A DNA stretch of 64,000 nucleotides. It comes from Dehalococcoidia bacterium. GTDB taxonomy: Bacteria; Chloroflexota; Dehalococcoidia; GIF9; UBA5629. Below the pieces are notes generated by a model. That model was given only the letters and a program-made list of their open reading frames with translations, was not told the DNA's origin and searched no databases. The stretch is from positions 160,001-224,000 of the forward strand of contig JBEKIW010000002.1 in assembly GCA_050011565.1 (NCBI GenBank), in the 5' to 3' direction. Of the stretch, positions 15,664 to 50,987 are shown in pieces (the stretch's first letter is position 1; every line of letters starts with the position of its first letter). Made by a program: the position numbers and the translations under genes.

Positions 15664-16455
15664 ATGCAACAGAGATGTCCTAATTGCGGTTCACCCGTTA
15701 TACCCGGTCAGCGTTTTTGTGGCGGTTGTGGAGCTCAGTTAAGTCTGTCCTGTCCTCAGTGCCGGATTACGGTCAGCCCCGGTACCAGATTTTGTCCTAA
15801 TTGCGGCACTACGCTGGGCGGTGGACCGACACAGCAGCCGGGATGGGGACAGCCCGGTGGACCGCCTCCACATCAGCCGGGAATGCCACCGCAACAGCCG
15901 GGTATGCCGCCACAGCAGCCGGGAATGCCGCCGCAGCAACCGGGTTGGGGACAGCAGCAAGCCTGGGCTCCGCCGGCACCGAAGAGCCAATCGTCATCAT
16001 CGAGACCATTTCTGGTAATACTGCTAATAGTTCTCGTGATTGGACTTGGCGGGCTTGTCTACTGGCAATTTGGCGATCAGCTCCTAGGGTTTTTTAACTC
16101 TTCCATCGGTGGTGGCAGTTCTACTATTGTCGATACCACAAAACCGGTGATCACGTTTTCTGAGGACCCAACTGTGTCAGTAAAAAGCGCCAGCATCTTC
16201 TGGCATACTGATGAGTTTGCTAGCACGCAGGTTGAATATGGCACTAGTAACACTTACGGCACACTCGAACCTGCCCAGCCAGCAGACGACCCAACTGGCG
16301 GCCAGTCGCTTGGAGTTATTGACCACTCTGTACTTTTAAGTGACCTTCAGCCGACTACTACCTATCATTACAGGGTCAAGTCGAAAGACAAAGCTGGTAA
16401 CGAGGCAATATCCTCCGACGATAGGACTTTTACGACCATTGCAGCTACAGAGTAA
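15664..16455 (+). CDS. Double zinc-ribbon, Pro/Gln-rich linker, TM helix, FN3-like domain protein
   Basis: Four CxxC pairs; QQPGMPP repeats; hydrophobic helix; WHTDE...STQVEYG...YHYRVKSKD. Confidence 0.85.
   Translation: MQQRCPNCGSPVIPGQRFCGGCGAQLSLSCPQCRITVSPGTRFCPNCGTTLGGGPTQQPGWGQPGGPPPHQPGMPPQQPGMPPQQPGMPPQQPGWGQQQAWAPPAPKSQSSSSRPFLVILLIVLVIGLGGLVYWQFGDQLLGFFNSSIGGGSSTIVDTTKPVITFSEDPTVSVKSASIFWHTDEFASTQVEYGTSNTYGTLEPAQPADDPTGGQSLGVIDHSVLLSDLQPTTTYHYRVKSKDKAGNEAISSDDRTFTTIAATE
15832..15960 (+). repeat. Coding tandem repeat, about 21-nt unit (QQPGMPP/QQPGWG)
   Basis: Repeated cagcagccggg(a/t)atgccgcc units within the CDS. Confidence 0.8.
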
Positions 16456-16648
16456 TAGCTAAATTTCGGCCTACTAAGACCAAGCATAATCCTCGTATGA
16501 ATGAGCCTATACCCGGGTTTGAATTCGAGCTTATCTTTCCCGTCAGCATCTTTTTGATGTTATTCCCGGTCGTTGTTTTATTTTCGTGGCACAAGTTGTA
16601 TAATCGGTAGGTGACCCTGAGGGTCTTAAACTAATGCGGGAGGTTATT

Positions 16649-16981
16649 ATGAAATACATTAGCTTGCTAGCTGCTATTTTTCTTCTAGTCTCGTTTGGAG
16701 GCTGCACGCTGATAAACAGCGCACCACGTCATTCGGCCGACGAGGTAGCCGCTATAGCTAAAAGCTTCAGTCCTACGTGCCAGAAGCTGATACCGCCAGC
16801 TCCCGGAGCACCACACACCTGAGGTTGCGCCGCTCCTCAGTATGAGGAGGTCGCCTCGACTTATACGGCGCAATATCAGGATAATGGAATGTGGACTATA
16901 ACGAAGGCCTGCCCCGTAGACTCCACATATGACCGCAGCTGGTCCTTCAATGATAATACAAATGAATTGATATGGAAATAA
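16649..16981 (+). CDS. Putative selenocysteine-containing lipoprotein (110 aa, U58, motif T-U-G-C)
   Basis: GGAGG RBS; lipobox FGGC; in-frame TGA 16820-16822; frame continues 52 codons to TAA; hairpin CTCCTCA-GTA-TGAGGAG starts 10 nt after TGA. Confidence 0.7.
16833..16849 (+). promoter_or_regulatory. Candidate bacterial SECIS hairpin
   Basis: Perfect 7-bp stem; G is the first loop base, 18 nt after UGA. Confidence 0.6.
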
Positions 16982-17020: not shown

Positions 17021-17341
17021 GTGACTGACATTCTGGATGAAGCCCAGGCGTTAGTTCAATGCAAGGCCTGCCCCTGGTATAAGAGCTGCGCCTTACCGGT
17101 GAAGCTAACAGAGGATGACTTAAGAAAACAGCTCGAGTCTTCAATGCCGGGAGCCGCCAACCCGGGTACCTCCCCATACGGCATGCAGCAGTTGTTATCC
17201 GGCCTGGCAGCCGCTGCTGAAAACTCCATTCTGGAAGGCTGTCCGGTATTTATCAGCAGGCTTCGCTCCAGCCCCAAGCTCGCCGAGCAGATAAAAAAGC
17301 TAATGCAAGACTGGTCAAAAGAGACCCAGAGCCAGCCTTAA
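17021..17341 (+). CDS. Hypothetical protein with Cys motif
   Basis: CKACPWYKSC...EGCP; possible metal site. Confidence 0.7.
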   Translation: MTDILDEAQALVQCKACPWYKSCALPVKLTEDDLRKQLESSMPGAANPGTSPYGMQQLLSGLAAAAENSILEGCPVFISRLRSSPKLAEQIKKLMQDWSKETQSQP

Positions 17342-18540: not shown

Positions 18541-19269
18541 ATGAAAAAATTAATGTTGTACACCGTCATTACCGTAGCTCTGCTACTTATTTCAGTCGCG
18601 GCTTGCAGTCCGCCGGTCAGTCAGCCCGAGCAAGAGTTCTTCAACCGATGTGACCAGATGCGTAAAAATATAGAACAAGCGCAGGCTATCGCTTCAGAGC
18701 TACAGCACTTCGATTGGAAGGAGTTCGCAGCCATCGGTATATTATGCCCGCCGGGCGGAATATGCCCGGTGGGAAACTTGCCTATAGTGGAAAAGGCTTC
18801 AGTGGCTAAAGAGCTTGCAGACCGCGTGGTCCCTTTGCCCGAACGATTGCCATCGCCCGAGACAGCCGAAACCTACTCCGTGCAGTGCGCCAGCTGTTTG
18901 AAATTCACCATAGAGGTCTGTTCAAATAGCCCCTATAATGAATCACAAGCCAGTGCCGCGGGGTCGGAAAATATTACCGCTCAGTGGCAGCAGTTATGTG
19001 GTCAACTCCAATCAGCCTTACAGGGAGCTGAATATCTGGCTTCCAGAGACAAGACCATTGCCGCAGATTACACGTTCCCTCAACTGTTCGCTTATTTCAC
19101 TGCCTCTGAGGAAAAGGTAAAACAGAAGTATCTCGAAAAGTTTATCGCCAAATCTGACGAATACATTAGACTTCATGATGAGCTAATACAAAATATGCAG
19201 CAGGCCAAACAAACCGCATTAGACCTGTCTAACTGGCAATTCAGTCCTCAAGACACCTCAGCGCAATAA
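18541..19269 (+). CDS. Cys-rich lipoprotein, unknown function
   Basis: Lipobox VAAC; CPPGGICP, CASC; helical composition. Confidence 0.75.
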   Translation: MKKLMLYTVITVALLLISVAACSPPVSQPEQEFFNRCDQMRKNIEQAQAIASELQHFDWKEFAAIGILCPPGGICPVGNLPIVEKASVAKELADRVVPLPERLPSPETAETYSVQCASCLKFTIEVCSNSPYNESQASAAGSENITAQWQQLCGQLQSALQGAEYLASRDKTIAADYTFPQLFAYFTASEEKVKQKYLEKFIAKSDEYIRLHDELIQNMQQAKQTALDLSNWQFSPQDTSAQ

Positions 19270-34195: not shown

Positions 34196-34648
34196 ATGAT
34201 AGAAGTTGGCAGCCGGGCTCCTGACTTCGCACTAAAGGACCAGGATGGCAAATCAGTGAAGCTTCCTTCTTTTAAAGGTAAGAGGGTTCTACTCTCATTC
34301 AGACCGTTGGCCTGGACGCCGGTCTGAAGCGACCAGATGGTGTCTCTGGAAGAGCACTTCGACCAATTCGACAAATTGAATACAGTAGCCCTGGGCATCG
34401 GCGTTGATTCAGCGCCCTCGAACAAGGCGTGGGCAAAATCACTGAACATCGAGAGAACCAGATTACTTGCTGATTTCTGGCCTCAGGGAGAGGTGGCAAG
34501 GCTATATGGCGTGTTCCGGGACAAAGACGGTTTTTCCGAGCGAGCGAACATATTGATTGACGAGAACCAGGTAGTAGTATTTGCCAAGGTATATCCTATC
34601 TCTCAGCTACCGGATATTGAGGAGATAATTAAGTTTTTAAAAGCCTGA
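34196..34648 (+). CDS. Selenocysteine-containing peroxiredoxin (AhpC/TSA family), U44
   Basis: MIEVGSRAPDFALKDQ...PLAWTPV-TGA(34325-34327)-SDQM...; TGA sits at the peroxidatic Cys of PxxxTxxC; hairpin CCAGA-TGGTGTC-TCTGG. Confidence 0.9.
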
Positions 34649-50648: not shown

Positions 50649-50865
50649 GAATATCCTTTTTTAAACTGTCGACAATATTATCACTAACTTTAATGCCTGG
50701 TCAATTATAAACACAATGTGGACAGACTACCCCGCTATAGAATTTTTTAAAAGTTTTCATTTCAGTTACCTACAACTGCGCGGGAGAAAAAATCATGATA
50801 ACTTGAACCCGTTGAGTGTTGTAAGCCGGAAATCATCATGCTATAATGCCGATAGCTCGATAGCG

Positions 50866-50960
50866 GCTTTCCGAGCCTTTTGCCCTAAAGGAATAGCCAA
50901 GGGCATCGGCCGATAGGGTGCCACTGGAAACGGTGACGCCTCCCATCCTTGGAAAGGAGA
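50866..50960 (+). ncRNA. Moco/Wco RNA motif (riboswitch candidate)
   Basis: TTTCCGAGC...CCTAA...GGGTG.CACTG-GAAA-CGGTG.CGCCTCCC...TTGGAAAGGAG; promoter TTGTAA-N17-TATAAT at 50819-50847; upstream of tupABC. Confidence 0.85.
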
Positions 50961-50987
50961 GCAGAGTTGAAGGGTATCTTTTTTAGA

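Follow-up and report, generated by a model that had tools for sequence, protein, structure and literature searches.

A predicted family of exported selenoproteins with a PepSY/cystatin-like domain in one family of Dehalococcoidia

RESULTS

An in-frame TGA divides a putative lipoprotein gene

The stretch of DNA analysed here (the window) comprises 64,000 nucleotides (nt) of contig JBEKIW010000002.1 (positions 160,001 to 224,000, G000:C2:160001-224000) from a Dehalococcoidia bacterium whose 2.0 Mb genome, assembly GCA_050011565.1, consists of 8 contigs and is 99.2% complete. It contains a short gene for a putative exported lipoprotein that is divided by an in-frame TGA, and which we propose to be a selenoprotein of an apparently undescribed family. 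Under genetic code table 11 the open reading frame (ORF) at 16649-16981 (+) halts at TGA 16820-16822, while 52 further sense codons follow in the same frame up to TAA 16979-16981, and a gap of 39 nt separates this stop from the next ORF, which starts with GTG at 17021. Translating the TGA as selenocysteine (Sec, U) gives a product of 110 residues with Sec58 in the context H-T-U-G-C, where Cys60 is the C of U-G-C, two other cysteines (Cys44 and Cys88) and the C-terminus ...NELIWK. An earlier sequence-only reading of the window had picked out this interrupted frame together with a ribosome binding site, a lipobox, two further cysteines and a perfect hairpin 3′ of the TGA, and all of these elements are present (Table 1).

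Table 1. Features of the selenoprotein locus and of related loci in the same genome
Feature	Position	Strand	Remarks
Selenoprotein gene	16649..16981	+	110 codons + TAA; signal peptide/lipobox, PepSY-like domain, predicted Sec58; translated with TGA = U
Shine-Dalgarno-like GGGAGG	16638..16643	+	5 nt 5′ of ATG 16649; read from sequence
Signal peptide with lipobox-like F-G-G-C end	16649..16705	+	Cys19 is the predicted lipidation site
Conserved domain of ~85 residues, helix + six strands	16724..16978	+	alignment A1, AlphaFold2 model
UGA predicted as selenocysteine, residue 58	16820..16822	+	aligned TGA/Cys in homologs
bSECIS apical hairpin CTCCTCA-GTA-TGAGGAG	16833..16849	+	7-bp perfect stem, loop GUA, 17 nt from UGA; also encodes (A)PQYEE
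106-residue cytoplasmic protein	17021..17341	+	invariant C14, C17, C23, C74 (CxxCx5C...C); alignment A5
242-residue Cys-rich helical lipoprotein	18541..19269	+	BLASTP E 6e-10 to L046 extension, 1e-9 to P0027
AhpC/TSA peroxiredoxin	34205-34582	+	one in-frame TGA at 34325; motif T-P-V-U
selD-selA-selB, convergent 235-residue paralog, then tRNA-Sec	G000:C4:46992-52951		L001, L009, L014

The signal peptide ends in ...LLVSFGG-C19 and therefore has F at the -3 position, where lipoboxes most often have L, V or I. In homologs of the same short form a Cys recurs at the point where the hydrophobic stretch ends (SGGC, VGC, GAC and similar), and the genome encodes both lgt (2 matches) and lspA (1 match), all over cut-off. 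The window protein is probably lipid-anchored at Cys19, judging from these features. The TGA is not an assembly error, since it is unchanged in the contigs of all four other public DNA runs (4/4) while positions close to it do vary, with differences at 16816-16818 and, in one run, 3 nt absent at 16809; among public RNA runs, none was listed for this stretch. A promoter/terminator scan gave nothing decisive and showed no terminator-like site in the 39-nt gap, and an Rfam scan of the window returned only tRNAs and one molybdenum/tungsten cofactor riboswitch, with no match at the selenoprotein locus.

Homologs extend across the TGA

The sequence-only reading had named homology across the TGA, with TGA or a Cys codon at the aligned position, among its checks. 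Similarity does extend to both sides of the TGA, and at the aligned position homologs have TGA or a Cys codon, with no Trp or Arg codon. When the read-through protein was searched against 61 related genomes, 26 gave a match, all of them in the window's own family: 25 of 36 genomes matched there, compared with none of 24 from four other families of the order; homologs cover residues 1-110, and exactly one TGA is spanned in 46 of the 53 match rows. A profile of 26 domain sequences (A1) was then used on 77 genomes of the same family. The copy in genome G012 was excluded from A1 and from the hairpin alignment A2 described below, and loci L033, L040 and L042 were excluded from A1 only. The profile matches 39 of the 77 genomes, with one TGA in 64 of 70 rows, and the six rows without a TGA are fragments, a frameshifted copy or distant loop-less relatives. 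The Sec domain is limited to a single Dehalococcoidia family: sampling the class evenly gave matches in 4 of 401 genomes, all four of the window's family, and the domain was found in none of 390 genomes from 87 other families of the class.

Two C-terminal peptide patterns, used to seed a scan of metagenomes, yielded a further 77 loci, in which the codon aligned to Sec is TGA in 67, TGC in 2, TGT in 3 and TAT in 1, is a gap or truncated in 4, and is never TGG (0/77). The three TGT loci are distant, loop-less and doubtfully aligned, and the TAT locus is doubtful as well.

Public protein sets contain the family largely in altered form. A word-indexed search returned one full-length Cys relative (P0002, 68% identical, HG-C-GC), the other six of its seven matches being N-terminal stumps of 62-71 residues that end exactly before the TGA. 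With an exhaustive profile search, 61 proteins were recovered at E ≤ 0.001; 29 of them were examined. Further Cys forms are P0010 (C-R-C), P0014 (C-N-C) and P0020 (C-G-C), the Cys codon was verified as TGC in the DNA of L121 and L131, and more distant relatives are without the Sec loop entirely. Trp occupies the Sec position in 6 of the 29 examined relatives (P0011, P0012, P0013, P0015, P0016 and P0021), all of which come from ENA contigs of 545-882 nt. Because DNA relatives have TGA opposite this Trp (L088, 113/125 identical to P0013, and L148, 156/172 identical to P0015), the Trp is most likely a TGA translated by a code-4-type gene call; a second, upstream Trp in the N-terminal extension of P0015 is TGA in L148 as well.

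Conservation is stronger in the half of the protein 3′ of the TGA, and an invariant W, K, C and F lie in this half. Over the 47 codons between hairpin and stop, all pairwise comparisons of 15 short-form homologs give 1146/923/1913 differences at codon positions 1/2/3, and the window gene differs from its closest relative at 1/2/14. In the G012 ortholog (L049/L035, G012:C5:15619-15944) the TGA is kept and small flanking indels shift the frame, which marks this copy as a pseudogene or as misassembled, the contamination of that metagenome-assembled genome being 7%.

A covarying hairpin follows the TGA

The 66-nt stretch around the hairpin folds with -34.8 kcal/mol (z = -5.87), a value equalled by 0 of 200 shuffles. 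Covariation was assessed on A2, an alignment of 28 homologs scored for a 7-pair helix against 500 shuffles. The helix is paired in 92.9% of cells, compared with only 47-60% in slid controls, and both sides change in 5 of the 7 pairs (15 cells); none of the 500 shuffles reaches the observed values. According to the legend of Figure 2 of a 2026 review (PMC13188914), the bacterial Sec insertion sequence (bSECIS) model calls for an apical loop of 3-9 nt, a stem of 4-16 bp placed 16-37 nt from the UGA, a G within the first two loop positions and a minimum free energy ≤ -7.5 kcal/mol. The window hairpin lies within all of these limits, with a 3-nt loop starting G-U, a 7-bp stem, a spacing of 17 nt and -17.5 kcal/mol, so that the conserved hairpin anticipated by the sequence-only reading is borne out both by compensatory changes and by the published model. 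In most of the metagenome loci the loop of the best hairpin begins 17-23 nt past the TGA, with stems of 5-8 bp and loops of GUA, GGU or N-GUA-N, and the two TGC forms (L121 and L131) have no hairpin at that distance.

The host encodes the Sec machinery and still uses TGA as a stop

Contig C4 of the window genome carries a cluster of selD (396 bits), selA (572), selB (368) and tRNA-Sec (72), all over curated cut-offs, and the selD gene itself has one in-frame TGA. The selA/B/C/D complement that the sequence-only reading wished to see confirmed is present in full. The stops of 15 homologous genes are TAA in 10, TAG in 1 and TGA in 4, and selA of this genome also ends in TGA. As TGA still ends genes, it is not reassigned in this organism. 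Among the 77 family genomes, 31 have both the domain and selA, 8 the domain only, 7 selA only and 31 neither, and all 8 domain-only genomes are 55-88% complete. These counts are given without a statistical test because the genomes are kin. The window also encodes an AhpC/TSA protein with an in-frame TGA (Table 1), already noted in the sequence-only reading, which we take to be of the known Sec-Prx type; a short hairpin follows its TGA.

The predicted fold weakly resembles PepSY and cystatin domains

Residues Cys44, Sec58, Trp82, Lys86, Cys88 and Phe100 (full-length numbering) are invariant in A1. The AlphaFold2 model of the domain (mean predicted local distance difference test score, pLDDT, 87.1) combines one helix (residues 5-15) with six strands and is least confident in the Sec loop. 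That the protein matches no recognised family, as had been supposed from the sequence, is supported by the profile scans: at E ≤ 0.1, neither the window protein nor the 26 A1 members match a Pfam family, none of the 26 matches PF03413 (PepSY) even at E ≤ 1, and NCBIfam 20.0 gave only LsoB_effector, at 21 bits against a cut-off of 60 and over the signal peptide.

In structure comparison with VIA-align, the top match is the C-terminal PepSY domain of YpeB (5boi; Z 7.1, root-mean-square deviation 2.5, 61 residues aligned), followed by a designed cystatin-fold protein, the CD1622 lipoprotein (4exr, Z 6.1) and YpmB (2gu3, Z 5.9). The metal-binding PepSY protein UipA (7atk) is a weaker match at Z 4.8. 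A protein atlas queried with the Cys form P0010 returned nothing at ≥ 0.9, the best score being 0.84, and offers as a weak lead a cluster with PepSY in 33% of its members (score 0.81). NDUFB10, which appeared when the A1 profile was run against PDB sequences, was taken as a chance match, those hits having E 0.03 and weaker. By prediction, the Sec domain would share with PepSY proteins such as YpeB, YpmB, CD1622 and UipA a helix on an antiparallel sheet, a size of ~60-85 residues and an extracytoplasmic location, in many cases following a lipobox or one transmembrane helix. It differs in having no sequence match to PF03413, and the Z values lie in the common range. PepSY domains are inhibitor or metal-binding modules, and we know of none with a Sec/Cys loop. 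The model offers a PepSY/cystatin-like fold as a weak lead, not as proof.

The position of the Cys next to Sec is not fixed. Of 74 distinct contexts, 72 have a Cys no more than 5 residues away from Sec, and the nearest one is found at +5 (31 contexts), -2 (16), +1 (16), +2 (7) or -3 (2), leaving 2 contexts with none. The U-G-C motif, which the sequence-only reading had used in describing the candidate family, is indeed there in the window protein but occurs in just 7 of the 74 contexts, and since the Cys register shifts it does not define the family. The contexts without a Cys within six residues are GEERHG-U-GPATPL in L037 (G036) and GWGEAL-U-DGYELP in L142.

The Sec domain occurs in several architectures

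The surface-anchored lipoprotein envisaged in the sequence-only reading corresponds to the short form found in the window, which is one of at least three architectures. The short form lies in a gene order of LTD-domain protein, zinc-ribbon/FN3 protein, Sec gene, 106-residue four-Cys protein, DUF4328-like membrane protein and 242-residue helical lipoprotein, which is kept within the genus and partly beyond it.

In the long form (P0009), a double zinc ribbon, a transmembrane helix and a Pro-rich linker precede the Sec domain. The long form of the window's own genome, of 235 residues, converges on selB with the gene ends abutting (1-6 nt), and tRNA-Sec lies ~800 nt further on. On the same contig, selA is found within a few kb of the long paralog in 10 of 13 genomes of the window's genus and in 3 of 3 genomes of genus g17, and 35 of the 77 metagenome loci contain selB, in most cases with 6 nt between it and the end of the Sec gene.

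The third architecture consists of fusions. In other organisms the Sec domain is followed by a C-terminal homolog of the 242-residue lipoprotein, in L046 and in 10 of the 77 metagenome loci (L100, L101, L114, L115, L133, L134, L141, L143, L146 and L150, each in the same open frame). This fusion suggests that the Sec domain and the 242-residue protein work together. Cys forms, for their part, are fused to an AhpC/TSA-Redoxin domain in P0014 (Pfam E 7e-27), L121 and L131.

DISCUSSION

A model for the selenoprotein and its alternatives

The observations that carry our interpretation are the conserved UGA, the Cys homologs, the covarying hairpin, the Sec genes of the host, the signs of coding constraint beyond the UGA and the confinement to one Dehalococcoidia family; what we infer beyond them are lipidation, the fold assignment, the selenylsulfide chemistry and the physiological substrate. 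In the model that we favour, the hairpin located 17 nt 3′ of UGA 16820-22 would direct SelB and tRNA-Sec to decode this codon as selenocysteine. Once processed, the protein would be a small PepSY/cystatin-like domain on the outer face of the cytoplasmic membrane, a location suggested by the signal peptide or transmembrane anchors. Sec58 would lie beside Cys60 in a flexible loop that forms an insertion between strands one and two, the sequence of this loop also encoding the SECIS hairpin. Sec and the neighbouring Cys could then form a reversible selenylsulfide, making the protein an extracytoplasmic redox or thiol-exchange module, while Cys44 and Cys88 may form a structural disulfide. A redox role is suggested because a nearby Cys is almost always present, because Cys forms are fused to AhpC/TSA-Redoxin domains, and because Sec generally sits in redox sites. 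Judged from the sequence data, Sec decoding at this UGA is very probable, and we also hold with high confidence the reading as a whole, that is, an exported selenoprotein with hairpin-directed Sec that acts as an extracytoplasmic selenylsulfide redox module. If the protein is granted to be a selenoprotein, the choice between such a redox module and a binding or sensing role appears roughly evenly balanced.

Several points weigh against this model. Sec58, and with it the selenium content of the protein, is a prediction from sequence. The 43-nt stretch 16820-16862 taken by itself (-17.5 kcal/mol, z = -2.0, 11 of 200 shuffles equal) is not exceptional, and RNAalifold alone retained just the inner 4 pairs of the helix. 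The stem overlaps the conserved codons P-Q-Y-E-E, which entangles the constraints on protein and RNA; part of the hairpin conservation is therefore at the protein level, and variants that encode other residues (SLDGK, LQSAEE) keep the pairing. On the structural side, a Z of 7.1 is middling, within the range that VIA-align calls a common arrangement, and Foldseek found no match in the PDB at E ≤ 0.001. The AhpC/TSA-Redoxin fusion is seen for Cys forms only (P0014, L121, L131), the shifting Cys register and the 2 of 74 contexts devoid of Cys would fit a metal- or selenium-binding loop equally well, and the function is one that we infer throughout.

The alternative that we take most seriously, although on balance we consider it rather unlikely, is the following: the protein is a genuine selenoprotein, but its Sec/Cys loop binds or passes a metal(loid) or selenium and serves surface capture, uptake or sensing, not redox chemistry, with the zinc-ribbon/transmembrane paralog beside selA-selB as the selenium-linked member. 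A flexible Cys register is typical of chelating loops, the structural similarity extends, more weakly, to metal-binding UipA, and the long paralog stands next to selB and near selA in the genomes and metagenome loci given above. In this adjacency to selB, however, the genes converge and are not co-transcribed; as it is found in two genera and in metagenome loci at 60-91% selB identity, it may be inherited synteny, while other genera have their paralogs on other contigs or 194 kb away, and the short form of the window is not near any sel gene. A more specific proposal, which we regard as speculative and improbable, sees in the family a lineage-specific device for selenium status or selenium capture, in which the paralog beside selA-selB-tRNA-Sec displays the Sec/Cys loop outside the cell. 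If this were true, translation without selenium would halt at the UGA and the fold could not form, so that completion of the protein would depend on Sec supply; the paralog could then report or secure selenium for the Sec machinery, and the window lipoprotein would be a free-standing copy.

The remaining alternatives dispense with selenocysteine altogether. Were the TGA an ordinary stop, the gene would encode a 57-residue lipopeptide, and the downstream frame would be a separate small ORF or a decaying remnant. Gene callers do end the protein there, as the stumps among the database matches reflect, and an ATG-started ORF of 30 residues exists at 16889-16981. Against this, the half beyond the TGA is the better conserved one, third-position substitutions dominate in it, full-length Cys homologs exist, the hairpin covaries, the domain tracks selA across genomes, and the predicted fold needs both halves; we consider this reading highly improbable. 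It is, in our estimation, extremely improbable that the TGA instead specifies Trp or Gly under genetic code 4 or 25, or is decoded by a near-cognate tRNA. The six relatives with Trp at the aligned position could be cited in its favour, but these come from very short contigs whose DNA relatives have TGA, no metagenome locus has TGG, TGA ends 4 of the 15 homologous genes as well as selA, and the genome holds the full Sec machinery.

Relation to known selenoproteins

The proposed recoding mechanism is canonical; the family itself seems not to have been described before. In PMC13188914, Table 1 gives model identifiers for 119 prokaryotic selenoprotein families or subfamilies. No match was found to any of them in a scan that covered those with Pfam or NCBIfam models, and none of the table's entries is described as PepSY-like or as a lipoprotein. 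No description of the family was found in the full-text literature, a search that did not extend to supplementary lists or to BSepDB, where a prior listing is possible. BSepDB was compiled by homology to families already known (PMC13326102, section 7) and records up to 49 selenoprotein genes in members of the Dehalococcoidia (PMC13326102, Table 2).

The family resembles other bSECIS-decoded bacterial selenoproteins in its in-frame UGA, downstream apical hairpin, Cys homologs, nearby Cys and host complement of selA, selB, selD and tRNA-Sec. It differs in that most families catalogued in PMC13188914 are thioredoxin-like or cytoplasmic enzymes, whereas this one is small, predicted to be exported and PepSY/cystatin-like. 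Like the PF07610 system, the window protein is extracytoplasmic by prediction and has U-G-C, and a Cys relative is fused to a thioredoxin-like (AhpC/TSA-Redoxin) domain; in contrast, in Pfam scans the Sec domain matches neither PF07610 nor a thioredoxin-like family, and U-G-C is a minority context. With Sec.1 (CxU), Sec.2 (UxC) and the other CxU/UC families in Table 1 of PMC13188914 it shares a very short Sec-Cys spacing, distinct from CxxU/UxxC, but its fold and family differ from those of the thioredoxin-like Sec.1 and Sec.2 selenoproteins, and several spacings coexist within it.

An exported, membrane-anchored protein that is not thioredoxin-like, is confined to one Dehalococcoidia family and comes in three architectures, one of them beside the Sec-insertion genes, would be unusual among bacterial selenoproteins. 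Selenoproteins are systematically missed by gene callers, and apart from the Cys forms this family is present in public protein sets as N-terminal stumps or as versions with a spurious Trp. Recognising it would correct the annotation of many metagenome-assembled genomes from peat and sediment. The family also offers a set of naturally occurring Sec-Cys spacings within a single scaffold, which should be useful for selenylsulfide chemistry, and a lead to the role of selenium at the cell surface of the selenoprotein-rich Dehalococcoidia.

Neighbouring genes

The gene for the 106-residue protein adjoins the Sec gene in the short-form loci examined, and the two are probably co-transcribed. The protein has no signal peptide and no Pfam or NCBIfam match, and 13 aligned homologs are 68-87% identical to the window copy. 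It was considered as a strict partner of the Sec protein and rejected, being encoded in 57 of the 77 family genomes, some of them from genera that lack the Sec domain; the idea is weakened further by genomes that have the Sec domain and in which the gene is missing or lies elsewhere.

Upstream of the Sec gene, the gene at 15664-16455 (+) encodes a double zinc ribbon, a Pro/Gln-rich repeat, a transmembrane helix and an FN3/purple-acid-phosphatase-N-like domain, and shares its N-terminal architecture with the long Sec paralog. Elsewhere in the window, the molybdenum/tungsten cofactor riboswitch lies at 50857-50975 (+), with 66.2 bits against a gathering score of 36.

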